From Obrimoposthia wandeli (Eukaryota): 64,000 bases of DNA. The DNA is taken from assembly GCA_977020255.1 (NCBI GenBank), contig CDROCS010002147.1, forward strand, positions 248,001 to 312,000, in the 5' to 3' direction. Below the pieces are notes generated by a model that was not told where the DNA came from, ran no database searches, and worked only from the letters and a program-made list of their open reading frames with translations. Numbering within the stretch: position 1 is the first letter of the stretch; each line of letters opens with the position of its first letter. Both the position numbers and the translations under genes were made by a program. Shown here piece by piece: positions 13,763 to 58,825 of this stretch.

Positions 13763-14783
13763 TATATTATATATGTATGTTATATTAAAAAAAACTGTAA
13801 TCGCATAATAATCATAGAAATCTTAAAAAATACTACATAATATGGAAAATTAAAAAACAGTATATAAATACAACTAAACAGTTAATTTGAGAAATAAACA
13901 GGCTAAATATTGAAATATATCAATAAATTTAGTAATAAAATGTGACTGGTCTAATCATCCTTCAAATAAAACCGTGCATATGTGTGAAATAAATTATCTC
14001 TTACATGTGTGTATATATAAATCTATACATGTCCTGAGACATATATGCTCTTTTCAACTGCACAATAGTAGTTTAATGCAGTGGATGGTACAATGGTCAA
14101 GGTGGCAAACATAAATTCGAATATTAAGCGCATTTGAATTTCATTTAGAGCAATTTTGAACTGGTCCCTACAGTTCTTGGCTTACCATTAAGCTTCTGAA
14201 ATTCCCTAAATTGTCCTTACATATTCCATACCACTGCCAATAAATCCCTATATAGTATTTTTAAGTGTTGTTAAACTCCCCCTTAAAACCATAAAATACA
14301 ATTTAACTCAATTTAATACCCCTTAAAACTGAAAATCGCATAGAGAATCCCCACATGGGGAGGAAGTGCCTGAGAGGCCATCTGAGGGTGAACACGTACT
14401 CTTCGGGTCTGCCGTGGCTTGACGAGAAATATACATACAGGGTCGCGATTTTTTATCTCGCTCCCATCAAGCTTGTAAAAAAATCTGTATAACTATTTAT
14501 ATCAAGATACACTAAAAAAAATTCTATCTAAATCTCTACCCCTCCAACTACACACAGTCAACAAAATCATATCAAAATACTACGATTTTTCGAATAAAAT
14601 AATTGAAAATATTTTTATATTCAATGATTTTCTCGCACACAAATGTAGTCAAAACTTAAGAAAAGACTACGAATTTTCTAATTAGCAATTTGAATAACAC
14701 GCCCTGATTGGATGATCAAAGAGGGTTAATCTGATGTTTGTGTATATAACGAGGTATATTTTCATTATTTTTCATAAATCAAA

Positions 14784-15510
14784 ATGCATTTTTACAACAA
14801 CATATATTTGGACGAAAATATGAAGGTGGAGCTGTATGGAAATACATCTCCAGTCCTACAGCGAATACCACTACCGTCGCAGTACATTGACTTACTTAGT
14901 CAAGACTCGTCGTTGGTGAGCAAAGGAGAAAAATCAGCAAGAAGAGAAGCCCCAGCCAGAGGAGAATCATCAGCAAGAGTAGCAAGTCCAGAGCTGATGG
15001 AGCTGGACGAACCTCTCACCAGCTCGACCACGAGAAAACAATCAATGGCAGCGAGACTCCAATATATCGATCTGACTAATCAGGATTCGATTGAAAATTG
15101 TGAACACTGTACTCCTTAGCGGAATGCAGAAGCCACTGCTCATCCATCAATACCGACGAGGAAGAGGAGCAATCTCTTCGACAATTTCAAGGCTGGTATC
15201 AAACATCAATGTCAGTAAAAACTGATCACGTTGTCTCAGCCAGAGATAGTCCTCGTAACCACTCCGACGAAGAGCTCTTCAGTGATGATGTACCGTCGGA
15301 TCAGGAGAAGGACTTGACTCCATTCATCGACTAGTGGGTCAATTTCATTCCACGTTTTCTAATCAATAACAATCCTGTAGTCAGATATGACTCAATAATT
15401 GCTGAGTTAGATGATGATGAGTGGAATCTCTTCACATACGACTGGGATGCTCTTTACCATTGCTGCTACACCGACTCCGATTCAAACCGCAGACGATATG
15501 GTGTCTGAAT
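14784..15510 (+). pseudogene. Decayed acidic/Ser-rich ORF of unknown family directly upstream of pPolB relic 2
   Basis: ORF 14784-15119 continues, after a stop and frameshift, as a long acidic frame (SINTDEEEEQ..SDEELFSDD..ELDDDEWNLF). It is richer in GC than its flanks and has two QYIDL(L/T) motifs. No family recognised. Confidence 0.4.
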
Positions 15511-16393
15511 TCAGGGATTGGGCAAAATGCATACCTGTTGAATTCAAGGTGTATGCTGACTTTGAGTCAATTCTAGTATTGCATGACCAGTATGAGAGTA
15601 TTCACCTACTGGCTTCGCAGGACTATTATTCTTAGGCCCCAATATAACCCAGTACAATGAATTTTCTGGTTCAAATTGTATTTTTGATTTTATGTTAAAA
15701 TTATAGGAGTTAGGAACAACTATTGTCAACCCGTGGTATGATCTTAATGATCATCAAGCAATGATCATGACTGGCATATACTGGGTTTATTTTAATTCTA
15801 GTAGATCTTGTCTTTTCGTGTAAAACTTTAGCAGAATATGGGCTAGATCCAGTGGTGGGATTCAAACTGTTTAGCAACCGGTTCGCGCGAACCGGTGCGA
15901 ACCATTGAATCCCACGACTGTGTAAAACACTCGATATAATTTATCATTAAAATATATTTATCAATTTTACTTAAACGGTTGAACCATTGTTATATGTAGA
16001 AGGTTCATTTCACCATATTATATATACATGAAAAAATCTGTGCTCGGATTTTTTTATGTTTAAATATTAATATATTGTAGTTAAATGTTTGCTGAATTTT
16101 AATAATAGTTTCGAAATTTTGACTTTCCCATTAATATTAATATAAGAATAAATAAGAATAAATAATGCGTTCAATCAACGAATTAAAAAATTATATCTTT
16201 TTTATCCAGATGATTATGTACGTTTCAGTCGAAGAAGGTAGTCCAGGAACCGGTTCAGGCGGTTCTGCGAACTTTTATATTTTTAGGAACCGGTTCGCGC
16301 GAACCGGTGCGAACCCTTGAATCCCACCACTGGCTAGATCCCATACAATTCTTTAGTTTACCTGGTCTTTCATGGGCAACAGCAATTCGGACT
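15500..16393 (+). pseudogene. Protein-primed DNA polymerase B (Polinton/Maverick-type) relic 2, heavily deleted and split by a hAT MITE
   Basis: IPVEFKVYADFESILV (cf. P.VIYADFESIL). Removing the MITE and one TSD restores EYGLDPIQFFSLPGLSWAT (cf. YGLDP.HY.TLPGLSWDA). Confidence 0.78.
15850..16332. mobile_element. hAT-type MITE, copy 1 (483 bp)
   Basis: TIRs CAGTGGTGGGATTCAA / TTGAATCCCACCACTG. Perfect 8-bp TSD GCTAGATC (15842-15849 and 16333-16340). Non-coding. Confidence 0.95.
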
Positions 16394-16399
16394 TTATCA

Positions 16400-17290
16400 A
16401 TTTAAAAGAATGTTGTTTGGATTCAAAAATGCTCTAGCTACATATCAAAGAATTATGGATAATTTATTGAAACATGTTCCATCTACTGCGGCCTTCCTAT
16501 ATGATATTATAGTTTATTCTAATTCATTCGAAAAGCAGATCGATATACTAAATCGCGTGTTCAAAAAGTTGCAAAGCGCTAATTGAACGATCAACCCAAC
16601 CAAAATTAAGATGATGATGTTTAAAACAGAATTTTTCGGGAAATTGGTTGGGAATGGAGAATTGTCACCAATAACAGATAAAGTGTCTGTAATAAGGAAA
16701 TTATCAAAGCCAAAAACAAAACAAAAAAGTACGTTAGTTTATGGGAATGATTAACTACTATAGAGCACACATACGTAATCTAGCAATTATTGTGTCTCCC
16801 TTGAATGATTTACTTAACAAGAAAATGACTAATACTGTAAAGGGGAACAGTGAATGTGAGAAAAGTTTTATAAGATTTAAAGAATCCTTGACAACATCAC
16901 CGATATTAAAATTAACTGATCATTCTAAGCAATTTTTTATCCAGACAGATGCCTCCGATAGAGTTGTAGGCACCGCATTATCTCAATATTTTGAAGATCA
17001 ATTGCTTTCAGATCGAGAAAGTTAACGGAAACCCAACAAAGATGGTCAACCATTGAAAAATAGTTATACGCAATAATTTATTCCATTGAACAATTCCATT
17101 ATTACATTTATGGAAGGAAATTTATTCTGCAGTCAGATCATAAACCACTATCATGGTTGAAGACAAATAAACTCAAAGGGAACAAAATAGCCAGATGGAA
17201 CTTGCTATTACAAGAAATTCAAAATTCAACACAAAAAAGGAGTAGAAAACCAGAATAGTTACTTCCTAGTCGTATATGGGAAGAAACTAG
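16400..17290 (+). mobile_element. Ty3/Gypsy RT-RNaseH relic (separate family, not A/C-biased)
   Basis: MLFGFKNALATYQRIMD, MGMINYYRAHI, FFIQTDASDRVVG, QRWSTIEK*LYAI, QSDHKPLSWL, IARWNLLLQE. Stops and frameshifts present. Confidence 0.9.
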
Positions 17291-28004: not shown

Positions 28005-29544
28005 CCAACTTCCACTTTTTGGTGTATCATGAAAGCTGATGACCATGGTGAGTTGGATTTTTGTATAATGCCTTGTTTATCTAATTCTTTGAATGTTTGT
28101 CTGGTAGGAATTGTTTTACTTTGATGGAACATGATCTCCGTTTGTTAATTATTTTATGTGTAGTTGTGTTTTTTCTATGTGTGCGATGTTAGTGGGGTAG
28201 TTTTTTGATTGTTCGGGAATATTAGGGTTTTATTTTTGTAATCTATCACTATGTTGTAGTGTGCTAGGATATCGGAGCCTAGTATTGCTTGTTGGAATTT
28301 GGTGGTGGTGAAAAACCATTTGTATGGTTTTTGTTAGGTATGATCGTGATTTCTGTCTCACCATATGTGGGAATGTTAGTGCCGTTTGCTGCGTAAAGTT
28401 GGTTGAGTGGCGTATGTTGTGTATCATATGAGAGGTTTGATATCAATGATCAGCTTTATTTAGAGTGTATTGTGTTGTGTGGTAATGAGTTTCTATGATA
28501 TGGAGAGGACTCTGTGTTAGTTGTTATTGAATTGGGTCTGTCCATTCTGTATGGTGAGTTGTAATAGTTTGTTATTTGCTTCAAGTGTGTCTTGTAGTGA
28601 TTGTATCGTTTTGTTTTGATTGTTTTGATTGTTTATGATGGTTTCTAAACTGTTGTCTTTGTTGTGGTTGTGCTGTTTGTTTTTTCTGTGGACGTGTTCA
28701 CTAGTATCTTGTATTCTATCAGCTATGTCGGTTAGTATTTGGAGGTTGTCGATGTTTGTTGCTGCGAGTATTTTTTGTTGTTGTTTCGCTAAGTAGGCTT
28801 TTCATGAAGCATTCTGTTATCAGACTATTGTTTGATGATGTGTTTGGTTGAATGATATATTGTTTGTTTTGTAGATTCTATAGTGTCTCTGATGGCTTGT
28901 TCAGGGTGCTTGTATCAGTTGTGTTAATATGTGTTGTTTGTTTATTTTGTAGTGTTTTGTTAGGATGGTGATTATGTTTTATGTTTATATATTTTTATGG
29001 CTGATTGGGTTTTTGGCTGTGTTTATGTTGTCTAGTTCATCTGTGGTTTGTCTGAGGGTGTTGTTTGGTAATGCTGATATTATATTCTTTGTAAATGTCT
29101 TGGATGATATGTTTGGAAATAGATTAATCTGTTTGAATCAGTTTTAACTATTTTAGTGATGTATTGTTGTTTTCTAAGAAAAAAATTGGAGATATCTGGA
29201 TAGTAAGTAGATTTGTGACTTCTGGAACAAAGACCCCCGTGCTGAGGACAAAATGTGTTAGTTCTACTGTTTAGGTGACTCATCGATGACTCATCGAACA
29301 AAGACCATGATTCGTCGATGACTCATATTCGTTGTTCTCATAAAGTACACTTGACTCCTCACCAAGTTCTAATAAAGCCTATTATATATAACTTTGAAAA
29401 GTAAAAAAATACATTTTTTGAAGGTTTGGACCCTTGAGGGTTAACTCTTGAAGGTTTTAGACCCTTTGAGAGAACCCTATTGGAATAACCATATTAAAAA
29501 ACAGCGAAAAAAAAACCAACTCGAAGAATCAGCAATAAGAAGTA

Positions 29545-29650
29545 CCTTAAAAGAAGCAACTCAAATAACTTCCTTAAAATAAGCTACTCAAAGAACTCCC
29601 TTAAAAGAAGCAACTCAAATAACTTCCTTAAAATAAACAGCTCAAAGAAA
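29545..29650. repeat. Internal tandem repeat (2 x ~54 bp made of ~27-bp subunits)
   Basis: CTTAAAAGAAGCAACTCAAATAACTTCCTTAAAATAA occurs twice, alternating with ..CTCAAAGAA.. subunits. Confidence 0.85.
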
Positions 29651-30149
29651 TACAATCAAGAGTGAGTAACCATGTGCTCATAGTCTTTGTTTTGAAAGAC
29701 TCATGTTCTCAACATGTGAAAAGAAATATTTCAAAAAGAACAAAACACATCACGTGTTCTTATATTGCACATTTTCATCACATCTGTGTGAGTGTGTGAT
29801 TTTCTCTTCCCTACCGCATACTCCAATACAAGGCAGAGACAATCTCTGCCTGTATTTGAGAATGTGTGCGGTAATGACGGCAGATGATGAAATAATCACA
29901 TCACTCTGCCGCTGGATGGATTTATGCTGCAGTATTTAGTTAAGTTTTTATTTATTTTTATTCTGCTGCTGTGACAATCTTGAGTAAATTTTATTTTTAT
30001 TGATTTAATTTCAATATATGTTTGAAAAACACAATAGAAGAACAAATAACTATTAATTGTTGTCCTTCTATTGTGTTTTTCAAACATTATTGGAGTAAAC
30101 ATCCTATGTGTTTTATACCTTTTAGCTGTTATGATTATGTCTTTCAAGA

Positions 30150-30675
30150 CAAAGGCATGAGCTCATAGTCGGCACTTGGGCTCATGACCTAGACCATAAC
30201 CTTGAGCTCATGGTGAGTACATTGGCTCAAGTGATGAGTATACTATAAAAGAATGTGAGCTTGATATCATGATAACCTTATGATAACCTTGGGCTCATGG
30301 TGAGCACATGAGCTCATGATCTTATAATAACCTTGAGCTCATAGTCAGCACATGAGCTCATAACCTCGTAATAACCTTGAGTTCATGGTAAGCACATAGG
30401 CTCACTTGATGAGTGCACTATAGAACAAAGGACATGAGTCATGACCTTGAGCTCACGTGATGAGTCTAATAAAACAAAGGACATGAGTCATGACCTTGGA
30501 ATGACCTTGAAAATCAGGTGTACTCGGGAGAAATGTGTCCTTAACATGACCTCAAATTACCTTGACCTCATGTGACCTCATGAGGTTACGTGATGAGTCA
30601 TGTGTACTTTAGGAGAACAAAAGATGTGAGTCATCGATGAGTCATGTCTTTCTTCGATGAGTCATCGATGAGTCA
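30150..30675. repeat. Degenerate tandem array rich in TGAGCTCA and TGAGTCA motifs
   Basis: Six exact TGAGCTCA (30158, 30203, 30309, 30334, 30353, 30448) and seven exact TGAGTCA (30435, 30484, 30594, 30627, 30638, 30658, 30669), set in recurring TAACCTTGAGCTCAT..GCACATGAGCTCA units. Confidence 0.9.
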
Positions 30676-31001
30676 CCTAAAAAGTAGAACAAATACATTT
30701 TGTCCTCTGCTTTTTTCCAGAAGTCACCCATCTACCTACTCTGGATGATTGTGTGTTGTTGTTATGTTATCTGTTGGTTCCATTTGTGTAGGATAGTTGA
30801 TATGGTGAGATAACAGACCTCTTTGGACTGAAAATTGTAGTACTTTGGGTGTTGGAGGAGGTCGGGTGGCTTCACACACTGGATGTGGCGATGCTGATGG
30901 CAGTAACCTGTGGGTGAGATTGACGATGTTGGTGATGCTGGTTGCTGCAGGCTGAGGCAAAACTGGATATTGTTGTTATCTATAGGAGTAGGTGGTTTAT
31001 T

Positions 31002-33621: not shown

Positions 33622-33804
33622 TGTTGTGACCCTATCCTTCCTTTTCTCTCATTATCTTGTGTGTTTCTTTGTTTTTATTATCATGTTATTGTAAGTATAA
33701 TAATATATTAGAAAAATCAATAAATCGTTATCTAGTTATTTTGTTCGTATCTCTCCTCATTCTTCTCTCTACAATTTTTCTATCTCTCACGAAGGCCTCC
33801 TACA
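33622..33804 (+). repeat. 5' LTR
   Basis: TGTTGTGACC...CCTCCTACA; 178/183 identical to the 3' LTR; contains AATAAA. Confidence 0.98.
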
Positions 33805-33806
33805 AT

Positions 33807-33819
33807 TGGTGTCAGAAGT
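33807..33819 (+). promoter_or_regulatory. Primer-binding site complementary to the tRNA-Leu 3' end
   Basis: TGGTGTCAGAAGT, 2 nt after the LTR; reverse complement of ...ACTTCTGACACCA, the 3' end of eukaryotic tRNA-Leu(CAA). Confidence 0.9.
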
Positions 33820-34568
33820 CCTCAATATATATTCAATATATCGATACATTCAGAAGAAGAACCAACTCATCCAAGAACTACATTCAATTCAACAACAACC
33901 ACTGCCAATCCAACAACCTCATCTCCTTCTCGTTCTTCTGTTTTACTACTCTACAATACCCTCTACGACACCCTCGATACCCTCTAGAAACAGAGACAGC
34001 AGCAACCTGATCATAATCATCATCATCAGAATTTCAGAAACAATTACTACTCTGTCGCTCACAATCTACGAGATTCTGCTACAACAATCACCACCACAAC
34101 TACGGAGCCACGCTATAGGGGCTAAACTACTCCAACTCACATCCTACAGGTCACAATTAAGAGCGAAGATATCAGCGAAACAATCCTAATAACCACAATT
34201 CCAAGTTCACAAATTCAACAATACACTACTCTACTTAACTCTACAAACCGTCGGGAGTAAGAAAACTGTGACTGCAGAAACCAGCATCACCAACATCACC
34301 ATTCTAATTCTTTACTATGTCAGCCGGATATCGGTAAGCAGCAACAGCAGCACCAAAACTACCAACTACTCAGCCGCGCTAGAGAAACTCAATCAAACTC
34401 AATCCACAAAGAAACATATATTGAATTATCAAGTTAGTCACCCGCTCTCAGACAAACACTGATCCTACAAGTCCTGCTCCAACCCCAGACAACAAAGTGT
34501 TATCACTGGGGCCACAAAATAACTTCCGTGTTTTCATAACCACAGTCACAACATAACCGATCGCATAA

Positions 34569-35474
34569 ATGGCACACAACACACCATCCACACCAGAGTT
34601 TTTCCTGGACGAAAATCAGAGCCCTAATAAATGGTTATCACTCACTCAAACAATCTTAAATTTGCCGGGGACTCACAACCCGAAACACATCACTCACAAA
34701 ATCATCTCATCACTACCCACCAACACACTCAATGACATTGCACAGGATCTCATCGACATTCACAAACACACTTCACCTCTAGATCAGATCAAAAACATTC
34801 TAAACCAACACTACACCATAAATAAAAAGGAGTTATTTGAAGACTTATTTAACTCACCTATCACTTTCACATAAAAACCCACCCATCTCTTAAACACATT
34901 GAAGACTAAACTGGAACACATTCAACCCAACATCATAAATTACACTCACAACTCATTACTCCAAGAAGTCTTTTTCCTACAACTACCCCCAGACACAAAA
35001 AAATACTTACAACGTTGGAAAACAAATCATTAGAAGAACTGGCCACAACAGCAGACAAACTACATGCATACAACCAACCCACCTCACAACAAACATTACA
35101 CATACAAAGAAACCCAACAAACCAAAACGAGTCAGAAATAGACAATTTAAAAATGATCATACACCAACAGAACCAAACAATAACATCACTGACAGAAAAG
35201 ATTGACAAACTTACAACGACCTATACACAACACACCACCAACAGACACAGATCATAATCATCAAATTACGACAACAAACAACAACATACCACAAACAGAT
35301 ACTGATCACCATCACCATATTACGACAATAAACCACAATACACTTATAACAGATACAGATCACCCTAACCATACAATAACAATAAACTACCCAATCCAAA
35401 CTACTGCTATTACCACAATACATACGGCACCAAAGCCATCAAATGCACCTTGCACATACCCAAAAAACTGCTAA
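34569..35474 (+). pseudogene. gag: gag (disrupted)
   Basis: ATG at 34569; in-frame TAA at 34872 in FT*KPTHLL. EVFFLQLPP / SLEELATTADKL span a frameshift near 35010. RS-rich repeats and C-terminal YCYYHNTYGTKAIKC (CxYH..FG.KA.KC knuckle of this Gypsy clade). Confidence 0.9.
35240..35390 (+). repeat. Three ~54-bp repeats in the gag C-terminus
   Basis: ACAGA(C/T)AC(A/T)GATCA recurs at ~35241, ~35295 and ~35349, encoding NR(H/Y)RS..S.Y repeats in the gag frame, with stops at probable Arg/Ser codons. Confidence 0.8.
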
Positions 35475-35479
35475 AATCA

Positions 35480-38398
35480 ACAGTAAGCGCACCAATTACC
35501 GTTGATTGCTTCAAAATATTCACGGTGCACTCACAAATCAACAACATTCATTTCCTCATAGACACTGGCTCTTCAGTTTATATAATACCACACACCATCA
35601 CGCCAATACCTAGACAACGCACCACACCTACCACACTCATGGCAGCGAACCACACACCAATAAAACTTTCGGTACGACTAACCTAACAATAACCTTAGAC
35701 AACATCCTCTACAAATAGGATTTTGTCATAGCAGACATAATACAGCCAATCATCGGAGCTGACTTTCTACCCAATTTCAACCTAATCATCGACTGCAAAA
35801 ATAAAACACTAATACGAAACAAAACATCAACACATACAAACCTCCACACCCATACCACAAACTGGAAAACACATAACCAAAACGTATTAGGCACAATATA
35901 TACAAAAACAGACGCGACAAACACACTACAATCAACTATACCACTCCAAAAACAAAACAACTTCACTCACAAAATCATTACAAACGGACGACCATGTCAC
36001 GCCAAAGTAAGGCAACTTCCACCTAATAAGCTAGCAGTCGCAAAAGACACATTCATTAAGTTAGAAAAAAATGCATTATTCAAAAGTCCGACTCACCTTG
36101 GTCATCAGCTCTCATGATGCAACAAAAAAAGGATCAAACATGGAGATGCTGCGGAGACTACCGAATGTTGAATGCTATGACAACACCAGACTCGTATCCA
36201 CTTCCACTCATAAAAGACATCACCACACGCCTAATTCATGCGACAATCTTCAGTAAAATAGATCTCACATCAGCTTACCACAACATTCCTATGCACACAG
36301 AGGACATCAACAAAACAGCAATCATTACACCATTCGGACTCTGCGAATACATCAAAATGCCATTCGGTCTAAAAATTTCCGCCGCCACGTTCCAAAGGTT
36401 CATGGATCACATATTCACAAACACGAACAACATTGTAACGTACATAGACGACGTCCTAATAAGAAGCGACAACCACGCCAACCACATCAAAGACATTCAA
36501 AAAGTAAAAGAAATACTAAAAAACCACAACCTCGAGATCAACACCAAAAAATGCCTTTATCATCAAACACAAGTAGAGTTCCTTGGACATACCATATCAC
36601 ATAACCAAATCAAACCTCTACCAAACAAGACAAACACGATAAACAACATGCCAATACCAACCACGGCTAAAAAAATCAGAAGCTTCCTAGGAATGGTGGA
36701 TTTTTACCACAGACACATACCTAACTGCGCAGGAACACTAGCCCCTCTACACGACTTAATCAAAAACACGCACAAACAAGCAAAGATCACACTAACCAAC
36801 ATCGACATAAAAAAATTCAATACAGCCAAACAAGTACTTACAGACGCTACAACCTTAAATTTCCCATTTCCAAACGCGCCACTTACGCTCACCACAGACA
36901 CTTCAAATCACGCAATAGGAGCAGTTTTAAATCAAATAACAGAAACCACACCACAACCAATCGCATTCTTCTCAAAGAAACTGAAAATACACCAGACTAA
37001 ATACTCAACATACGAGAGAGAATTACTGGCCATATACGAAGCAATAAAATACTTCGAAACACATCTAGAAGGCAACACTTTCACAATTTACACGGATCAT
37101 AAACCCCTTCTACAAATCATCACCATGAAAACACCCTCGCCACGCCAAATCAGACAGATCAACTACATCTCGCAATTCAATTGTACTCTCAAACACATCG
37201 CTGGAAACACAAACATCGTAGCAGACACACTCTCACGCATACCTCAAAACAACAACGTCATAACGCAAAATATATTTCTCGGACGCGGACATCAGACACA
37301 AACATGACATATCCGAATTCACTCGAGGAAACTTACATCTCACTAAAACAAACGACATATGGTACGAAACCACTACTCCCGGTTTAACTAGAGTCATACT
37401 CCCAAAAAACGACATGCATAAAACACATCCATGATTTCCATCATCCCAGCATAAAAGCAATATTTGACATAATCAAACAAACTTACATATGGCCATGCAT
37501 GTGCAAAGACATCCAAATATTCGTTAAACAATGCATCAAATGTAACAACAACAAATCACAAAAACATTACAAAACAATTCCATTCACCGTCACTAGCAAA
37601 AACGCATTCCACACAATTCACATTGATCTCGTCAGACCATTACCTTCAAACAACTCGTTCACACATCTCCTGACAATAATAGACAACAACACAAGCTGGT
37701 TTTCCGCCATACCCATCAAAGACACATCATCAACATATATATGGAACAAAATATACAAACATTGGTTCATCACATACGGTTTCCCTTCAAAAATAATCAC
37801 AGATCAGGGACGGCAATTCATCAGCAAAACATTCAATGACTGCTGCAACAATAAAAACATCAAACACACAACCACGACCACATACAACCCACAATCAAAT
37901 AGCAAAATAGAACGACTATACCGCCAAATTAAGGAAAGTTTGACATGCTTCGACAACCCAAAGAATTGGTAACACAATTTTCACAACTGCATCATGGGTC
38001 TCAGAAACACCCCTCACCTATGGGACAACAAAAGTCCCGTACATCGAATATTCAAAGCACACGTACCACGCATATACAATAAACACGACACGCAAACAAA
38101 CACACAGATGAAACCCAAATCTATCACAACACACTCACACGCATACATAAAAATACACAACCATCACTCACTAGACCCAAAATACCAGGGTCCATACACC
38201 ATCATCCGACACAACACCAACAATACAACGCTCATTAACAGAAACCAAAAGCCAACGCTCATCAATAACAGAAATTTGAAAATCACCCACCCTGAGAAAC
38301 ACAAAAACCTACCACAAACACACAAACACAAGACAGTCAAATTCACCACAGTAACACGTCCGACAAACATCACTCATTCCATAACTCCGTTATCTTAG
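35480..38398 (+). pseudogene. pol: pol (protease-RT-RNaseH-integrase), frameshifted
   Basis: PR: FLIDTGSS, IIGADFL. RT: WRCCGDYRMLN, YIDD. RH: TTDTSNHAIGAVL, YERELLAI, YTDHKPL, ADTLSR. IN: HH..CIKC, IHIDLVRPLP, ITDQGRQF, YNPQSNSKIER. RT-RH (36114-37307) is still one open frame. Confidence 0.95.
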
Positions 38399-38409
38399 AG
38401 AGGAAGTTA
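38397..38409 (+). promoter_or_regulatory. Polypurine tract
   Basis: AGAGAGGAAG(TTA) immediately before the 3' LTR. Confidence 0.85.
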
Positions 38410-38592
38410 TGTTGTGACCCTATCCTTCCTTTTCCATCATTATCTTGTGTGTTTCTTTGTTTTTATTATCATGTTATTGTAAGTATAATAATAATTTAGA
38501 AAAATCAATAAATCGTTATCTAGTTATTTTGTTCGTATCTCTCCTCATTCTTCCCTCTACAATTTTTCTATCTCTCACGAAGGCCTCCTACA
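38410..38592 (+). repeat. 3' LTR
   Basis: Same 183-bp sequence, followed by TSD ATTAC. Confidence 0.98.
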
Positions 38593-39581
38593 ATTACGTA
38601 ATAAATAAATTAAGGTACGTAAAAATATACAATAAGTAAAGAAATATCGGAATTAAAATGCACAATAACTTTTTCTAATGTCGAAAATTTATCGATTTAT
38701 GATTTTTTTTGCCTGAGTTTATCGAACATTCTTTTTATAAAAATCAACAAATTTCCCCTAACTTATCTTTGTGAATAACCTTTTTCTATATGTCATGTGC
38801 TGCTAATGTGGAAGGATTATGATTTTTTTTGAAATCTAAGCTAAATAAAGATTGAGAAAAGTATTTGTATCATTAATTAATAAAAAGAAGTAAAAATATG
38901 TTGTCAAGATAATTTAGGAGCATTCAGTGAAGAACATGGGAGTTGCAATATGATGACTGATTTCTAATGAGGTTTGAAACGAGGTGTTTACCAATTTAAC
39001 TGCAACTGACAATCAAAAAGATTTTCTTTTACTAATTAATGTTTGTATATTTTAAAATATATATATTGTATAAATAGTTTGAGGGCAATTCGTGAGAATA
39101 GTAGATGTGACAGATATTGATAAGTGGTTTTATTCAGTCAGCCTAAAAGTAGATCTAGATACTCCTATTTTTTAAATAACTGAATATTTTCCATTTTATT
39201 GTTGAATGCTACATACAAAATTATGTAAATGAAAAAATTATTTATATTTTTCTAATTGTACCACGTTTCGAAATGAAACTTTTGACAGTTTATTTTCAAC
39301 ACTACGGAAAAGAAGCAGCAATGTAGAATTGAAGGTGATATTTATCAAATGTGACGTTTACAAGTAGTATTTTCTTTCATTTATATCCATAATTATAAAT
39401 AGATTTAATGACTATTTCGATGCAAAGAATTTTCTTTGGCTAATTATTTCATTGAAAAAAAATTCTATCTGATATTATTGTGGGGAATATTGATAAATTG
39501 CTGCCCATTTATTAAACTTCTACTCGAAATTTTGTCACAATTACATTTAGACTTAGTTTATTATATATAGATAGATATACA

Positions 39582-39984
39582 CAGTGGTGGGATTCAAACT
39601 GTTTAGGAACCGGTTCGCGCGAACCGGTGCGAACCCTTGAATCCCACCACTGATTATATAACAGTATCATTATATATACATGAAAAAATCTGTGCTCGGA
39701 TTTTTTTATGTTTAAATATTAATATATTGTAGTTAAATGTTTGCTGAATTTTAATAATAGTTTCGAAATTTTGACTTTCCCATTAATATTAATATAAGAA
39801 TAAATAAGAATAAATAATGCGTTCAATCAACGAATTAAAAAATTATATCTTTTTTATCCAGATGATTATGTACGTTTCAGTCGAAGAAGGTAGTCCAGGA
39901 ACCGGTTCAGGCGGTTCTGCAAACTTTTATATTTTTAGGAACCGGTTCGCGCGAACCGGTGCGAACCCTTGAATCCCACCACTG
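39582..39984. mobile_element. hAT-type MITE, copy 2 (403 bp)
   Basis: Same TIRs as copy 1. Perfect 8-bp TSD GATATACA (39574-39581 and 39985-39992). The last ~310 bp are nearly identical to 16020-16332. Confidence 0.95.
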
Positions 39985-42524
39985 GATATACATGTGTTAT
40001 AATGGATAAATCTAACTGCTGCATAAAACTGCTACTCGAACACGCCATCTTCATAACGTAATTCTTTAAGTGCATTAGAAAGCATGGAAGAGGTTTGGTT
40101 ATAATTAAGAAGCAGTTGAGAGCTGATATCTTATTCAAATATATATAAAAGGATGTTCTTTTTAATAGGCAAATGAGTTTAATATCGTCGGAACTGCTAC
40201 CTATTAATATTTATAGTACCTTTTAAAACCGTAGAAAAATAAAAACACTGGACAACGAGGAAACTGATATTTTTGAAGTGACAAAAGTTAAGGTTTTTCA
40301 AACAGAGACCGCGATAAAAGTTAAAAAATTATTTATCTACAACCAAAAATCAAAAGTGAAACATTCAGAGGTCTTAATTGAATTTTTAAGAACTTTTATT
40401 GAATAAATGTTTGAGAAATTTTAAAGTACATTTAACTGTATTCAAAGTACCTACATAGTTTTACAGAACACCTGAACCATCAGACAACATGATCATGAAC
40501 ATTATCAATTTTTAAAGATAATCTACAAATAAAAACTGTTTTCAAAATTTTCATATTTAATGCAGGTAAAATATAATTAATATTAAATAATAAATGCCCA
40601 AACGTAATTTAAATGTATTTTAAATAAAACAAAATAATATCAAATAAATTTTAAGTCACAATAATAAATAAAAAACGGCCTAAATTTGGAATATAGTTTC
40701 ATTATATTGATTTATTTAGATATACAGGACATCCCACCACTGTTTTAACGCATTTCACTTCATCAATATTTTATGAAATCCTTTTAAATTTTCAAAAATA
40801 ATAGAAAAATGATCCAAAAAAATATTTTATTATATTAAAATTATTACAAATTTAACTCCATTTTATTTGTGTTCATGAGTAATTGCAACTATCCTTCATT
40901 ATTTAATATGTTATGTAGCTGTAGAGTCATCAAAAATAATTATCTAATACGAAAATACTTTACTACTGACATCACCACAGTACTAACGCATGCGATTATT
41001 ACAATAATACTTGATTTTAAAAATTATTAATATTCCAGTTAATCAATTAAATCGATTGCAACAAAATTTTAACAAATCTACCAGAATTACATTCTAATCA
41101 AAGAAAAGTGCCAGTACAAATGAACATTTAATGAAGCTCCATTGGCTACTGATCAATGCCAGAATTCGATTCAAGCCTGCTTATTATCAAACAATTTTTT
41201 CTCACAAAAGCCCAAATATTCATATGATCTTCTCAAGCCGAGTACAGTGGACGTGTATATGTATCTTAGGAACAATGATGACTTCAGATTAGTTAAGAAA
41301 ATATTTATTTGCGAAGAATAATGGAAAACAGAAAGCGGTTTTGACTGATAAATCACAGATTCATTGTATAGAGCGCTATATTAAATATATTATTGTTGTT
41401 TCAAGTTACTGATAAACGTTCTAAAAATCAAACTTCAACAACTAGTCGAGATGAGCTGGATTTATTATGCAAATCAATTATAATAAAATAATTTTCACAT
41501 ATCGACTTATCAGATTGAATTCAATTATTTAAATTGGATAAATTTGATTAAACATTATCATCATCATCGTAATTATCATTGTCAGCAGTAGCAAATATTC
41601 AAATTTGAGCAGTAATGGACAAAAGATGTCGACTTTATCTATCGTTGAATTTTCATTGGTTGTCGAATAAGCTGTCAGTATGACGTCTAAGATACAAGTC
41701 AGCATACGGTGATCTCGATTCAGGAATGTGACGTCGCGATCTCTGTAGCATGCATCAGCCAAAAGATCAGTTCGAGTCGCAGACAACGGAGCTACCGCCA
41801 CAAATCGAGATCACCACGCAAACGAAAGTCATCCCCACCGACGGAGGGGATATATATGTCACCACGAAGACAACAAGACGGCGCAAAGTCAAGGTCATCA
41901 AGAACATCAGCAGGCGGATCTATGAAGTTCCAGTCTTGTGAGTGCTACATTGACACAGTTTTGAAATGGACTTATTTTCTGCTGATTGGTGGTTATGCAT
42001 TTATTGTAAATTAGTCAGTTAAATTTAGAGTTACCTAATTAAATAAAAACTAATTGTAGAGGGATTAATTGATTGTGACAAATTTGGCTAAATGTCCATT
42101 CTATAGAAGTAATCTATTTTTAAAATAAATGGATGGCCTGAAGTCCCTACCATATAGGAATGTGAGAAAGTTTCAAAGTCCATAAATACTCATTAAACAT
42201 TGTCAACTATACAATTATCTAAATATTTACAGTTTTATTAATAATATAGCATTATTATTTTTCATAGGAATCCATCTAAATTTGTTCACACAGCTAACAT
42301 GGATTCGGTCCGAACTCCGTTCATTAAGACGTCCTTATTCCCTTTGATCCAAAATAGTGCCTATATGGAAGCTCAACGAGCAAAATATCTCATCATTTGC
42401 TTTTCATTGTTCTCAGTGCTGCAGTCTTTGTACAGGTTCGACAATAAATTTCTTCTTGTTATATTGTAAATTTGAATGTAAAACAAGAAACACAAAATTA
42501 TTATTCATTTTGAACATCTTAAGG

Positions 42525-47529: not shown

Positions 47530-48304
47530 ACTTTAATAATATTTATCTCAAAATGTGCTCTGGCAGTAGTCTACTATCATATTTTTCTCTTATCACTATT
47601 TGATGTTTTGATGGAAGCGCTCTGTTGGTTCATCATTTACAGTCTCGTGGTTCTCGTGACTATTCATGAAATGGAGCTTGAAAAAAAATACATGGCTTTA
47701 TTAAATATGATAATAATTCAATATGACAATGCTCGACCCCATATCTATGATAATAACAAATCTCTTAATATTTAAATGAGGCAAAAGAAGACAAATCTTT
47801 GAATGTTGCATATATTTTGCCGTATTTAAACGTTTATTTGAAATGAGTAAATAGCGCTCATGTCGAAAATATGAATCCGTTAACAACCAAGGGCAAAAGT
47901 GAGATATTTAATCAGTTACTGAAACAGGTAAAGGACATATTTGAAAATAAGATCCACATGATAAAAGTAGAAAAAACCTTAGAAATGAATCATTCTCTAC
48001 TTGTTTTTGGAGAGGATAATACATTTTGTTATTTCTTTGATAGAAGATATTTATTAAATAGTTTTCCCAATATTTTGTTAGTATTTCTCTTCGTAGGGAT
48101 TTTGTTCTAAGAACTTTAACTTCATAAACAAAGAAGCAGAAATTATTTAGCAAGATTTTAAATGAAATTGAATTATAACCGATGAAGTTAAAGTTCATAG
48201 AACAAAATCCCGACGAAAAGAAATACTAACAAAATATTGGGCAAACTATTTAATAAATATCTTCTATCAAAGAAATAACAAAATGTATTATCCTCTCCAA
48301 AAAC
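47530..48304 (-). mobile_element. DNA transposase remnant, probably CMC/Chapaev-type, with a fold-back at its 5' part
   Basis: Minus strand: LLLPHLNIKRFV (cf. LLPPLHIKLG), VNDEPTERFHQNIK (cf. VSDEQGERFHQDI), MIVDYC (cf. MLADYC). Same motif family as 6480-6860. Confidence 0.55.
48003..48304. repeat. Inverted repeat: 123-bp arms, 56-bp spacer
   Basis: 48003-48125 and 48182-48304 are reverse complements with 4 mismatches. No TSD. Confidence 0.95.
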
Positions 48305-51340: not shown

Positions 51341-53469
51341 GATAACCCAAATCATTTTAACAACAAAAAAACCTTGTTAAAAATATTAAATTAATCTTTC
51401 ATTTTAAATAAACACTTTTTTAAATAAACAAAATATTAAATCTCGTTTCAACATTAATAGACTGAGTAAAGAAAAATAATTTTAATAAATTACCTCAACA
51501 ATTACTAAAACTTTATTCACTTTATAATATATTTCAATGTCAAGCTAGAGAAGTATATTTTGAAATGTCTAATCAAAAAAATTAAATAGAGTGATCTGTT
51601 TGGGAGGCATTTAAGTTCAAATTATTAAAGATGATGAATAATATTAAGATTAATTAAATTTCGTCTATTTATTAGGTTTTGAAGTTGTTTAAAAATGAAA
51701 AATACCATCAACATCTAAAATGTAATTATTCATATTTCAAATCCCAAATATCTCAATTTGTTAACCAGGGAGCGATGGATAAATTAAAGACTCGTCAGTA
51801 AATAATTTGTAAAGATAAAATATAAAATTTGTTAAATGATAATAAGTAGAACTATTTTTCAAAGTTAAAACTTCATGATTTGTATATATTAAATCGGAAT
51901 CGAAAAAGCATTTTAATCTAATGGTAGCAGTGCCAAATTCCAATTTATTTGACAAATATATTCACATTAATAAGTAATGTGGAATTTTCAAAAAATAATT
52001 TGAATGCTGATGACAACTTTGAGTAGTAGCACTGTCGATGAGATGGCTGGGTGCTGTGGGAGGGTGTAACGTCAGTTGGGATCTCTGAAAGTGGGCAGAT
52101 GGCAACTTCACCGGGATCGGGAGAGAGCTGAGCAAACATTCGATTATATTTAGTCACTGCACTGACCCTTGTTTGCTGTTGACAATGAAAATCAAGAAAA
52201 ATGAGACTAGGCGTTATGGGCCACGCGCTCAAATCGAAGTTTGGCTTTATTGATAGCTTCATTAAAAAGAAAATATTAATTTGATAAAAGTATTAAGGTA
52301 TCGTTTCACAGATTCAAACAAAATCCACTATATAGGACTATTTCGAAAATGCGCAACTCGTACACGAATGGAGCATTTGGATTTTCCAACGCTCTTTCTG
52401 CTGGATGTATGGATATATGTTTAGATTTATATCCTTAGCTGATCTAAATCATTCTGTGGAATGACTTTTTCTAGGAATATTCTTTGATTCGATTAGTTTG
52501 TCTCTATCACAGGGAATGAAATGTAAGTGAACCTAAATTTTATAATACTCTTATGAACAAATATACCGAAAATAGTAAAATTCAAAAGAAATTAAATAAT
52601 CAAAGCACATAAAAACTATAAAGTGTATAGAGGACAACGCATAGTATCTTTAATTATTTATTTCACACTTCAAACACAACAAAAAGAAACGTTTTGGTGA
52701 ACACCACGCCTTAACAAGTCAAAATCTCAAATGAAATGAAGCTCAAACTTTGACTCCTATAAAAAAATATCATTTGGGTCAGAGATACCTGACATGAGCC
52801 ATGTAGACAACAAGAGCTTTTTGAGTGGTCAATAACTATATGTATATAAATAAATAATGTTTGCAGACAATTATATGTTTTTCCAAATTATAAAGAGTTT
52901 CATTTAAAATTTATTGTACAAATTTTTAATGTAACATTCTTGGATTTTTATTCTGAAATATGTAAAACAATAAAAAATTAAATATTTTACTTTATTTCTT
53001 TTCAATCTTTTTTAAATTTTAATCTTAGAATTAAAATATTGTTTCAACTTAATTTTTACATAGTAAATATATTATTATTACTTTTATCTGTGTATTTTAT
53101 CGAAATAGAAAATTATGTCCCTGTCAAACACAGGAGAATGACACAATTATTATTATTAATGATCAGAAAAGTAAACCAGTTGAATGCATTTTTATTATTC
53201 CTAACGATTTTCGATGGAAAAAAGTAAAATAGGAGATTCATCAGAAAACACAACACCCATTATGTGTTGTTAAAGATAAAAACTATTGGAAATCAAATCT
53301 AAGAAAATACCAGAAAAGGTCAGTTAACCTATTCAAGAAAACGAATGCACCCAGATTAATTATTTACTATCTGAAATCAATTGGTTTATGAATTAGTTAA
53401 AGCAAACATAATTTATTTTCTAACTACTTGGCTAGTAGAAGCAGAGTTTTCTATGATTACATATATATT

Positions 53470-53910
53470 AGTAGGTGGATGTGTCCAGTCTAATCCACAC
53501 CCCCTCCCCCCCTTGTCCTTTAAAACCGTGCATGTGTGTGGAGTGAAATTTCGTGTAGGTGTGTGGAGTGAAATTTCACTCCACACACATGCACGATTTT
53601 AAAGGACAAGGGGGGGGGTCCCAAATTTTTTTTTCGCACCTCTAGGCGCGAAAGGCTCGGGACTCGTATATGTCACAGACTAGCTTGCGTGATGGCCGAA
53701 TGTCTCGCTCTGGTGTATATCACTAACTACCTCGGGTGATATTAAATATTAAATTTTTTGGGACCCCCCCCCTGTCCTTTAAAACTGTGCATGTCTGTGG
53801 AGTGAAATTTCACTCCACACACCTACACGAAATTTCACTCCACACATGCACGGATTAAAGGACAAGGGGGGAGGGTGGTGTGTGGATTAGACCGGACACA
53901 TCCACCTACT
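53470..53910. mobile_element. Non-autonomous fold-back element with Polinton/Maverick-type ends (441 bp)
   Basis: Both ends read AGTAGGTGGATGTGTCC. TIRs 53470-53625 and 53757-53910, 131-bp spacer. 6-bp TSD TATATT (53464-53469 and 53911-53916). Each arm is itself palindromic. Confidence 0.93.
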
Positions 53911-56569
53911 TATATTCACAAATAAACGAAACAACATGAATATAAATGATCGAGAAAAGCTACGATTGAGACCAAACAAGGTTATTAAAAATGAATTTTC
54001 GTTTTGTGCAAGAAAGACATGTTAAATAAATACTTTTTTATCGAGAAACTTGTTTTGTCTACTATTTTTAATTAATGTTACATAAAATTTTTATGGAATT
54101 ATTTAGGCTAAAATTTGTGATCCACGGCTGATTTAATAAATAGTGTATAAGTCATTCAAAAACTAAAGAGGAAGCTACACAATCATTGCGGTTCCATAGA
54201 ATGAGTTAAAATGATGAATAAAGAGATTTAAACAGTCAAAATTTTGCAAGGTTGAGGCACAACATAAACCCAACAAATTGAGTCTTTCAAATGTTGTTAA
54301 AGATTGCTTCTCATATTCGTAATTTGATTTCTGTATTGATAAATTTTTAGATTAATGGGGATCGTTCTTTGTCACATTTTGCTAATAATTTGTTCATTTT
54401 TCAGTCCTTCTGATTGTAGAAATGTTAGAACTAGTAATTAATTATTTTCTATTAAATAAAGTTTGTATAAATGGATTGTAAAAACCTGATTTCCTACAGT
54501 CAAATATCACCTTTAAGTGGGATTGTTCTGTGCCAACTTCCCACTATTTAATAGTCAATTCCCGACCGACTTTGAATGCTTCTTTTACCGACGTATTTTA
54601 TCTGATAATGTAATTGCGAATCATTCTAATATCTGGTGGAAGATAATTGATCTGATTATTAGTTCTGATGTTCAGAATTCTTTGCGAGGAGCGTAATAAT
54701 TACAAATTGAATGGCTTCAAGTGATTGGGCTAATATCTCAGCAGATTCTGAGATATTATACACCAAATTTTGTTAATTTATAAATAAACTTTTACTCGAA
54801 ATTTATATTGATTTTTTTCCCTTTTTCTACTAAATTAGTTTTATCAAACTAATTTTTATCACCATCAAATAAATATATTCAAAAATTTAATTTTTTTATT
54901 TATTAATCATTTTAGATTTTAAATAGGTTTTATAAAATTAAATATAAATTAAAATGTTTAATTATAATATTTTTCAAGTAACAATTTTATAATTTTTATA
55001 ATAAATAATTTTATTTAATTAAAAATTAAATGTTATTATTTCTTTAATTACTAGAAAATTAACAGAAAAAATCAACATAAAAGCTAAATAAATATTTATT
55101 GAAAAATGATTTATGTTATTTTTTTTATATTTACAATGTATTATAACAAATAATTCTAGGATTTATTATGATATTTTAGAAATAATTTTAAATTTAAATG
55201 TTAAATTTATTTGTTTTGATATTTTTCTTCACTTTGCATTTTGTGACGAATATTTTCATTCTAAAAATTTACATTTATTTTATTTAAAAAATAATCAATT
55301 ATGCTTCTAAAAAATGCATATAGCTAGCAATCTCCAATTGATCATGTGCAAACGACTACTGATTTTTATGAGATTTTATTTCCAATCAACAGACCAAGAC
55401 GGGCCTAACGAGAATAAGATAGATTCAGAGGCTTTTCCAGAATTAGATCAGATGCGGCCAAGCATGAATAGCCAGAATGTCACGCTTGGCCAGACTTGGA
55501 TTTTGAGGAGGATATGTCAAGAAATCTAAACACAAAATAATATAATTTACGAAATACAATACTAACATTCATAAAAATGGCTGAGTTCTTAATAGAGTTT
55601 TTTAAATATTTTACAAAAAAATATAAAAAACAGTTTTAATAAACTTAAGTAAATATATTTACATTTAAAAAGCACAATATTCTTCGCGGTTCTTATATCT
55701 CTTTCTGTCAAGACACATTCTAAACCTTTAAAATATTTTAATAATAAATTACCCATTCCTCTCCGATAATTAGCCATATACCGTTGTTCAATCCTTAGAA
55801 GCCTTAAAACTATCGATCTTATAAGATTTTATTAACTTTAAAGTCATGATTTTTACGTTTTCTTATTGCTTCATATTTTTCATGATTTAGACTTAGTTTT
55901 TTATATTGGGGTTTATACATCAAAAATTACTTTAAAATGATTAATTAAAGCTCGCTGACCAATTTTTAACTAAACTTTTTTAATTTTTATATTTAGTTTT
56001 GTTTATAGTAAAGAGACAATAAATACTATCAATATACATTAAACTTTCACGTTTCCTCCTTTTATATTTCATATATGCTTGAAACTTTAAAGGATTATAC
56101 TACAGATTTTAACAGGAATTATTATTATTATAGGTTTATGTAGGATTATGGGTTGTAAAAAACCAATCAAAAATATAGAAAATATAGAAATTAAACGTAT
56201 TCAATCTCTAAGTATCTTAGTGAATATCAACTAGAAGGTTAATTTGTATATGTTATCGGTGAAAATTGAAAGAAATTGTATATTTTAACCCGAATTGTTT
56301 CAGCAGTCAGAAATTTAAAGTTTGATACACTATGTGTTAATGTATTTGCTAGTGGAAAAGGGAATATTCATAGTATTAAAGATTTTGATTATAATTGTGA
56401 AGTTGAGTCTATTGAATTATTTCGTGAAAGCTTTTTACAAACTAGTATATGTTTTTGATTTGATTTTTGAAAATGTTTGGTGATTAATAATTTATTATAT
56501 AATTGTTAATGATTTTTTAGTTAAACGAAAAGTAGAATATACTAGAGTGAATATACTATAATTTGATAT

Positions 56570-57360
56570 AATAAATATGAGAGTGAAAGATTAAGGTTGT
56601 TATTATTAAATTTTAAAGAGAATCAATATAACATTTATTTAGCTAAAGCCGTTTTTATAAACATGATGATGATTAAACTGATAAAGTAAAATTTATATAA
56701 TGTAAAGGTGCATTATCTGAATGGGAGTGGTATCTTATATATATATATATATATAAATAATTTCCTACATGTTCATTCCTTTTGAAATTAAATGTTGCAA
56801 ATGTACCAATAATTGAAAATAGTGTGAAGAAAATTGATTTTGATACATAACCATTGAACGGAAAATTATATGGATCAAGTATGAATTATAAAAATTACCC
56901 GACATATTATATGCAAATAGTTCACTAAATTTAGAAAACGAGGATGATAATGATAATGAAAAAATTTAAACATAATGTTTTATTGAATATCTTATAACTA
57001 TAAATAAAAATCAAGTCAAAAATTTAAAACGGTTCTTCACTAAAGATAGAATAAAATCTGTTTTAAAATATAAAATTATGTGACATGGAGAATACAAATC
57101 AACATATGAAATGATTTATGATTTAACATATTTAGAAACAAAACCGGATAAATATATAAATATACTTTCAAACTTTTGAAAAAAACCTGAATGATTAGTA
57201 TGTTTAAATAATAATATTGAAGTGATATTTCTTTCTTGTGGGCATGTGAATACATGTATATCATGTATATCATGTTCCAGAATGTTACATTCATGTTCAG
57301 TAGGTGGATGTATGATTGAATGGAGAGTAATAAATGTACAATGTCATGGTATAAACAATT
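56570..57360 (+). pseudogene. iap: Decayed intronless inhibitor-of-apoptosis (IAP) gene: BIR-UBA-RING
   Basis: BIR: YESERLR..LAKAVF / TDKVKFI*CKGALSEWE...FPTCSFL. UBA-like: FTKDRIKSVLKYKIM*HGEYKSTYEMIYDL. RING, in frame with the UBA: E*LVCLNNNIEVIFLSCGHVNTCISC(ISC)SRMLHSCSVG, giving the IAP spacing Cx2Cx11CGHx3Cx2Cx6C after removing a 9-nt duplication. Confidence 0.85.
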
Positions 57361-57580
57361 AAAATTAGTAATATATACAAAAATGGATAAAAATGATAAA
57401 TTAGTTGATGATACGGTTGAGGAAATTATAAGTGAAACAATAAATGGAGTTAAATACTTTTCTAATTTTAATAAAGATATTCGTGCTCATGTTAGAGAAA
57501 TTGTTCGAGCACATGTCTATAGAGATCTTATGAAACTTAAAAATGATTCAGTATATAAGATAGTAGGACCCATTTTGTAG
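57320..57580 (+). other. Short ORF between IAP and ATPase; its last codons are the ATPase start
   Basis: 86 aa, no recognised motif. Ends in MKLKNDSVYKIVGP, interpreted as the ATPase N-terminus. Confidence 0.3.
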
Positions 57581-57935
57581 CTAAATTATTATAAAACAAT
57601 TAAATATTTAATAGTCGATTTAATAAGATTTATTGGTATTATGGTGATGTTTGCGAATCTGGATTAACGAAAAGTTATTTATGTAAACTGTCACTGTTTA
57701 TTTCATTACTCAAAACCTATTTCATCAAGGTGGTAAACATAGAACACGTAATTTAAACGTACATTACTTGGTTTTGTTTAAGAATCCGCGCCAAGCATTT
57801 CCAAATAACAGACTATATTTGAAAAATTCATTTCAAAATACAACTGAAAATTATCATGGTTACTTGTTTCTTGATTTTACACAGTATGTTTTGATGAATT
57901 GAGAATAATAACCGATATTTTCAACAACTGTATGG
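57530..57935 (+). pseudogene. Polinton/Maverick A32-like DNA-packaging ATPase relic
   Basis: IVGP / THFVAKLL (Walker A core missing), FNKIYWYYG (cf. RIIWCYG), TVYFITQNLFHQGGKHRTRNLNVHYLVLFKNPR (cf. SVIYITQNLFHQG...R.ISLNAHYIVLFKNPRD), YHGYLFLDFTQ (cf. PHGYLLLDL.Q). Confidence 0.85.
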
Positions 57936-58599
57936 TATATAAACAAAAATAAAGTAATTTTAAAAATAAATAGTATTTCCGGTCTTAAGTGGTAGTAAGT
58001 TAGTAGTTAAATCTTTAAAACATAAAATAAAAAAGTTAGGTATTTTATTTAATCTATACACTTTAGTTTTTAAAATCATTTTATCATGACTTCTCATTTA
58101 AGCACTTTGGATATGTTATGTGCTCTTCGTGTTAACCTTAAAGAAGACATATTCAAACTATACACTAATCAATACTTCTCAATTTATTATTCTCCAGAAC
58201 TTTGTTAAGCTAGAATTTTAAAATTATTTCACTATAATCATAGTAAGAATTTATTTTTGAATTTAATTTTAAATATTTTATTAGCTATGAGAATTATTCA
58301 GTATCATCATCATCATGATACTGAATTTTGTAGTCATATGAATAAATGATTTTAATTGTTAAAATATTTATTATTATTATTTTGAATATTTTAAATATTC
58401 ATTGCCACAGGTCTAAGGTGCTCTCTGATCATGCAGGGCTTCCCTCTTCAGAGATTCCTTAAGGGAAAAATGGGCATTTAAAAAAAAAGCTCGGAAACAT
58501 TTAAAAGGCGCAAAATTTAAAATTCGTATAATTAAAACAACATTTTTGTAAAGAACGCGAAAATTAAAAATTATTAAAGTCTCAAAATTGTGCATACTG

Positions 58600-58825
58600 C
58601 CCCTGTGAAATTTTGCAGTAAAAGGTACCTACCGGGAGGGTCAGTATGTATGATTTCAAGACCTGATGAATTTGAGTAATTTTTGTGTGTGTTTCGAGTA
58701 AATTTGACTATATATTAGCCGGCATGACTAATGCATAGTGTTTTTTAGCCTTATAGCGACAATGAACGGAGCATTCCCCCTTGGGGGGCTTTGGTACTTT
58801 GGCTGGAGCGACACTATATACTACT
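58600..58825. mobile_element. Candidate right terminus of the decayed Polinton-like element
   Basis: GC-richer block ending ...CACTATATACTACT (reverse complement AGTAGTATATAGTG), then AT-rich DNA. No matching left TIR found in the window. Confidence 0.35.

Follow-up and report, generated by a model that had tools for sequence, protein, structure and literature searches.

The Polintons, or Mavericks, are the closest known counterparts of the element reported here, and their life cycle was characterised in 2016 as inferred rather than demonstrated (PMC5499653). Intact vertebrate Mavericks have a mean length of 16,862 bp, terminal inverted repeats (TIRs) of 46-1,447 bp and a protein-primed DNA polymerase (pPolB) module oriented toward the centre, and the gene-bearing ones occurred in few copies (a median of 8 and at most 287) in a survey that began from gene matches (PMC8097293). 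The Polinton target-site duplication (TSD) is 6 bp, a length also found for IS3EU and GingerRoot, whose ends are TA..TA or TG..CA (PMC10045372), and Ginger1/2 elements have TGT ends and a 4-5-bp TSD (PMC2836005). As given in the main text of PMC8097293, Maverick ends include (AGT)2, (AG)3 and (AC)3A, repeats tied there to jumping-back priming, and its supplementary table contains 37 occurrences of AGTAGG. The pair AGTAGG//CCTACT stands in 21 of the 29 rows listed (20 tuatara, 1 axolotl), 13 of these 21 having exact 6-bp TSDs and many an integrase and pPolB; the table likewise holds the pair AGTAAG//CCTACT, and in row 2641 a gene-less 2,085-bp tuatara-table element with AGTAGG//CCTACT ends and an exact TSD. 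A TIR-panhandle model has been described for protein-primed self-synthesizing elements (PMC4046053), polB-lacking polintons are reported to remain mobile (10.1101/2025.02.07.637071), and in anole, according to PMC3014272, non-autonomous copies were not found. In searches of the open full-text literature, non-autonomous or miniature Polintons received passing mentions only, and no account came up of a Polinton MITE as small or as abundant as the one below; short families may be described in Repbase or the founding papers. In the name Polinton-1N1_DR, we take the N to denote non-autonomous. This catalogued Polinton name (PMC9341505) can be likened to our element by name only. Non-autonomous Polintons are thus known already, and what is new here is the size, the abundance and the link, within one window, between an arm and a pPolB.

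The element occupies positions 53470..53910 of the window, by which we mean the whole 64,000-nucleotide stretch of Obrimoposthia wandeli DNA analysed, and is very probably a MITE-sized non-autonomous Polinton/Maverick moved by proteins supplied in trans. It combines a 6-bp TSD and long TIRs with the end motif of gene-bearing Mavericks, although this end is not a perfect repeat like (AGT)2 or (AG)3 and is not among the three motifs of the PMC8097293 main text. Compared by end motif alone, it is like the gene-bearing tuatara Mavericks (PMC8097293), with which it also shares the 6-bp TSD and the TIR-length range; those elements are 8-41 kb long and present in hundreds of copies, whereas ours is 441 bp, gene-less and apparently present in thousands. 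The sequence-only reading had proposed a minimal Polinton-derived satellite, of which the non-autonomous derivative stands, its length some 38-fold below the mean for intact vertebrate Mavericks, and the role as a replication substrate is one that we infer. MITEs and foldback elements in general are short, gene-less, mostly TIR and high in copy number, with internal tandem repeats. Our element resembles those of the cut-and-paste superfamilies in size, TIR content, copies and tandem repeats, but against the TA, TTAA and 8-9-bp superfamilies its ends and TSD fit Polintons, and its presumed helper, unlike the helpers of MITEs, would be self-synthesizing and capsid-coding.

No strand can be given to the element, which is non-coding (longest ORF from ATG, 22 aa), has a GC content of 48% against 30% for the window, is bounded by AGTAGG//CCTACT ends at exactly the positions where contigs exit, and gives AGTAGGTGGAT as the inward reading from either end. 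The left TIR (53470..53625, + strand, 156 bp) and the right TIR (53757..53910, - strand, 154 bp) are 91% identical over 158 columns, and the core between them (53648..53741, + strand) consists of two diverged tandem units of about 47 nt, alike at 33/46 pairs (score 45 against a shuffle maximum of 30; 0/2000 shuffles). Back-jump joints in contigs are consistent with other copies carrying longer core arrays. A search for pPolB and integrase gave zero matches inside 53470-53910, so that the coding of an autonomous Polinton is absent; Rfam returned no match for the element, and its terminus had 0 matches in metagenome contigs. Two 17-nt viral-contig matches to the terminus, at which the similarity stops, were treated as chance. 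The 441-bp extent, the TIRs of about 155 bp, the AGTAGG//CCTACT ends, the flanking TATATT and the hairpin arms, all proposed from the letters by the sequence-only reading, were each re-found by computation.

The two copies of TATATT lie at 53464..53469 and 53911..53916 (both + strand), and the worry that such a motif might match by chance in AT-rich DNA is removed by a paralogous empty site that bears a single copy. The chance of TATATT in window-like DNA is about 0.2% per site. One contig per run (X1 and X2) links 53426 to 53911 across 37 other letters, of which 27/37 match window positions 53427-53463, 15 alternative registers scoring 7-14; this register makes the empty paralog short by 447 bp, that is 441 + 6, and boundary shifts that preserve this sum require a terminal mismatch. 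The empty site derives from the insertion host, an older repeat (53354-53469 and 53911-54016) with a depth 20-50 times unique. The 6-bp duplication at 53470-53910 is therefore real, the TSD length resting on two insertions, this one and that of the 1.5-kb element described below.

The contig data come from runs X1 and X2 of a single sample, possibly the window's own source. Contigs exit exactly at 53470 in 175 (X1) and 67 (X2) cases and exactly at 53910 in 104 (X1), and the flanks beyond these exits agree at just about 0.4, i.e. they are unrelated. The element is mobile as a unit of defined extent, and its insertions, at many AT-rich sites, have a 6-bp stagger. Against unique-flank depths of 46 and 5.3, the terminal bins reach 56,000-61,000 times unique flank in both runs; summed depth cannot be read as a copy number, and division by a worst-case 31-fold contig overlap, a correction of our own, leaves about 1,800-2,000, relatives down to 80% identity included. 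This points to a copy number in the thousands for the family, among which other layouts may be counted, as no contig among those listed spans the whole element, and the exact-end junction contigs by themselves imply roughly 140 insertions. Such a copy number is high where that of gene-bearing Mavericks is low. Loose ends occur at 53514 (307/160 contigs in X1/X2) and 53564 (154/73), together with a back-jump from 53564 to 53508, and suggest subfamilies with a different subterminal segment and tandem arm modules. The loop start in the arm resembles the terminus (GTAGGTG).

A second non-autonomous family is represented at 29202..30740 (1539 bp, no strand) by an element with AGTAAG//CCTACT ends, an exact TSD (CTGGAT) and TIRs of about 160 bp at 83%. 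The proposal that the window holds at least two such families with unrelated interiors is thereby borne out. The arms of the two elements have 15-16 of the first 25 bases in common, and beyond about 16 nt their alignment does not rise above shuffles. In Repbase, non-autonomous elements are filed according to TSD length and the 11 bases at the start (PMC4455052); as 10/11 first bases are identical and both TSDs are 6 bp, the 441-bp and 1.5-kb elements go together under this rule. The layout of TIRs plus repeats is the same in both, in unrelated sequence, the longer one containing tandem arrays (27, 44 and 49 bp) and, at its centre (30012-30092), a palindrome of 81 bp. Structure in its arms is weak or absent (z 0.03 and -2.55), and it was mobile without hairpins comparable to those of the 441-bp arms. 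Elsewhere in the window are a Gypsy-type LTR retrotransposon (33622-38595; 186-bp LTRs at 97%, broken frames), an older Gypsy relative (7994-9775), a PKA-like kinase frame (2-898, + strand; about 300 uninterrupted codons at about 50% GC against 30% for the window) and, at 48003-48304, 26732-27224 and 26083-26721, two more inverted-repeat elements without exact TSD and a GA-rich minisatellite.

The window also contains a decayed terminus with a whole arm of the 441-bp family (13931..14075, + strand), which begins in register with AGTA and is identical to the arm at 87/128 columns (0/2000 shuffles), the best of 1,146 window tiles. For this remnant a partner or right end, a second arm, a core and a TSD were sought and none was found; the element core had no match in 14075-14800, and a match to the inner TIR end at 14440 was rejected as not significant (168/1000 shuffles). 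The decayed arm folds no better than shuffles (77/200). On the same strand, 1.5 kb downstream and pointing inward, lies a decayed pPolB gene (15435..16441, +) with profile matches in order at 15501-15605 (iE 2.5e-6), 15617-15817 (2.9e-9) and 16331-16441 (7.7e-6). Its identity came solely via a motif scan of metagenome contigs that gave 115 stretches, mostly of one protein family; 119 motif-bearing frames were reduced to 74 (at least 150 aa, a shadow-frame family removed), which came from 69 loci, and the final profile was built from 14 close natural relatives out of 30. Among 14 ORFs scanned, 5 match DNA_pol_B_2 and 11 Endonuclease_7, and polinton pPolBs are known to contain homing-endonuclease inserts (PMC11161782); at one locus of the motif scan there is an rve-chromo integrase, and at another an A32-like ATPase that has a Walker A motif. 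The motif that served to gather the relatives makes the first of the three matches circular, and the flank score there, 6.4, is far under the members' median of 24.6; the other two are not circular. About 400 N-terminal profile positions went undetected in the decayed gene, and the 1.36 kb from 14075 to 15435 showed no recognised homolog. A 74-aa frame at 15411 found nothing in Pfam, a word-indexed search or viral contigs, and in the atlas unnamed clusters with low recognition; three phmmer matches of this frame, to long repetitive proteins without a tblastn match to the window, were rejected. The decayed pPolB is interrupted by a stretch (16017-16336) that recurs at 39669-39988 with 99% identity, and a 71-bp palindromic mini-element of CAGTGG..CCACTG type occurs, with partial copies, at 15850-15920, 39582-39652, 16282-16332 and 39934-39990.

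Since the 1.36 kb lacks a homolog and the N-terminal positions are undetected, the arm and the pPolB are linked by proximity and orientation only; the two together are probably a fossil parent of the 441-bp element. A truncated family copy lying beside an unrelated Polinton fragment would, by rough arithmetic, have a chance of under 1% to several per cent. Other Polinton debris is present in the window. A second decayed pPolB piece with later motifs (10963-11526, +; iE 5.7e-8 and 2.9e-8), upstream of the 13931 end, is either a separate copy or a rearrangement. For an A32-type packaging ATPase remnant (57687-57899, +), 739 of 771 candidates proved to be homologs at E<=1e-3, with PF04665 for most of those listed, and a RING remnant lies at 57195-57359 (+). 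A canonical ACTACT right end stands at 58825, followed by TATATT and lacking its partner end; as an AGTAGT end it is weakly similar to the 441-bp arm (10/300 shuffles). Together the features from 57195 to 58825 make up one more decayed Polinton, at a distance of 3.3-4.9 kb from the 441-bp element. A 13-nt terminal match at 57299, in frame within the RING remnant, was set aside as probably chance. The second pPolB remnant and the ATPase remnant indicate that Polintons were once active at this window, in which neither an intact helper nor a Polinton integrase gene was found, the sole integrase match being Gypsy.

In each arm of the 441-bp element, a hairpin of some 111 nt starts 36 nt inside the end. 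The left one (53506..53616, no strand) consists of an 86-bp palindrome, with its centre at 53573/53574, and a 25-nt tandem duplication, and folds at -55.1 kcal/mol (z -18.6, 0/200 shuffles); the right one (53764..53874, no strand) is its mirror and folds at -39.7 kcal/mol (z -11.4, 0/200 shuffles). With energies so far below shuffles, the claim that each arm is a hairpin is confirmed. The perfect 30-bp palindrome at 53559..53588 (no strand), said to be made by a direct repeat, is present at the centre of the arm palindrome, its right-arm counterpart being perfect over 24 bp, and both it and the 17-nt loop result from the single 25-nt tandem duplication (53527..53577, + strand; 2 copies, 92%) in the outer half. 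The idea that this palindrome competes with the long stem fails, however, as its fold is unpopulated: pair probabilities for the isolated arm exceed 0.99 in the long stem and stay under 0.001 in the 30-bp fold. Of the alternative folds suggested for the whole molecule, the panhandle is recovered at -180 kcal/mol (0/100 shuffles), better by about 57 kcal/mol than the local hairpins, which sum to -122.5 kcal/mol, and the parvovirus-like alternative terminal hairpins are not, both hairpins being subterminal and in the same orientation. The nested palindromes are better explained by a small duplication in an inherited subterminal palindrome than by flip/flop. The arm palindromes were most likely inherited from the parent TIR and serve as paired duplex-DNA binding sites or are passive, rather than acting as primers. 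Casposons are similar in having a panhandle-origin model and, in some TIRs, internal palindromes, but they are prokaryotic, use a Cas1 integrase and have other TSD lengths, and serve as an analogy only (PMC4046053).

Several other accounts of the element have to be weighed against a Polinton origin with movement in trans. Parvovirus-type replicons such as parvovirus/AAV have a hairpin at the extreme terminus, where it is the very end of the molecule and primes synthesis, and show flip/flop orientations among copies. Our element has nested foldable palindromes in common with them, and its very stable arm hairpins could be thought to flip between alternative hairpins in a rolling-hairpin satellite, with joints from 53496-53498 to 53772 derived from inverted arms. 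We rejected this hairpin replicon as highly improbable: the hairpins lie 36 nt inside the ends and alongside integrase-type TSDs, the loops of the two arms differ neither in sequence nor in orientation relative to their own ends (2/2 arms), the loop is entered uninverted in the 3 listed X2 contigs that run from the terminus (contigs too short for a family-wide survey), and the joints make up less than 0.1% of element depth, have a short side of at most 29 letters and do not reach the loop. The unpopulated alternative fold and the tandem duplication that explains the nesting argue in the same direction. Back-jump joints that reveal core and arm module arrays in other copies, together with a depth that falls 10-35-fold across the homopolymer-rich TIR/core junctions, would suit an immobile remnant left by deletion in place from a full Polinton, its depth coming from satellite-like module arrays. 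This too is quite unlikely, because depths over the termini, arms and core share one order of magnitude, and the contigs that link the termini to unrelated flanks number in the hundreds.

Internally repetitive TIRs, a tandem core, the absence of an identified helper from the window and the 6-bp TSDs of IS3EU/GingerRoot might instead point to a foldback-like MITE of another DDE superfamily with Polinton-like ends by chance, which we consider unlikely. Dada and certain hAT subgroups are further groups with a 6-bp TSD. For IS3EU/GingerRoot, the TA..TA boundary lies 2 bp inside and has no TSD, and contigs break at the AG..CT boundary; for Ginger1/Ginger2, the ends are not TGT and the TSD is not 4-5 bp. 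Tc1/mariner-type elements use a fixed TA target, and a TA-targeting MITE of this type was rejected on the 6-bp empty site and on the 104 X1 contigs that leave 53910 without the T expected of such a target. Another superfamily is also made less likely by the match of all six bases to Maverick ends and by the copy of the arm next to a pPolB. A plausible, if minority, reading keeps the Polinton derivation and has the element multiply by the integrase only, through MITE-like excision and reinsertion with gain via host gap repair or S-phase timing. Its size and abundance are MITE-like, its terminal repeat is imperfect and all results bear on the integration step alone. On the other hand, the same imperfect end is found on a family of pPolB-bearing tuatara Mavericks and is thereby compatible with protein priming, long TIRs have been retained although the common end motif is short, and no excision joint was found at the 441-bp locus in contigs of one sample, a weak observation.

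We therefore return to the non-autonomous Polinton moved in trans, for which the following model would most reasonably fit our observations. Internal loss from a Polinton-type element would have kept the outer TIR of about 155 bp, palindrome included, at both ends, with a short tandem-repeat core remaining between them. A strand would then loop out and its TIRs close into the panhandle, a terminal-protein/pPolB would prime at the AG-T-AG end and copy the strand, and an integrase would insert the copied product. Insertion by the retroviral-like integrase of Polintons, supplied in trans, is very likely in our view. As to the copying, we lean somewhat toward a helper terminal-protein/pPolB acting on the TIR panhandle, by analogy with what is modelled for self-synthesizing elements. 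That the element goes further and is a genuine satellite of Polintons, a minimal replicon of 441 nt which the helper terminal-protein/polymerase copies extrachromosomally and which is possibly co-packaged in helper capsids, is a doubtful extension. Were it true, the satellite would have come to outnumber its helper by orders of magnitude in a MITE-like manner, its arm modules expanding and recombining from one subfamily to another, and its conserved sequence would be a direct map of the cis-elements of Polinton replication and integration.

From a high-copy, gene-less derivative of this kind it follows that a few hundred bases suffice as a substrate for Polinton proteins in trans, and that new insertions can do without capsid genes in cis. 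Furthermore, with thousands of natural copies one could derive statistics on target sites and map the conservation of the required end sequences, neither of which low-copy full elements can provide. In this sense the 441-bp element seems to offer a minimal natural model for the DNA ends that Polintons need for movement.
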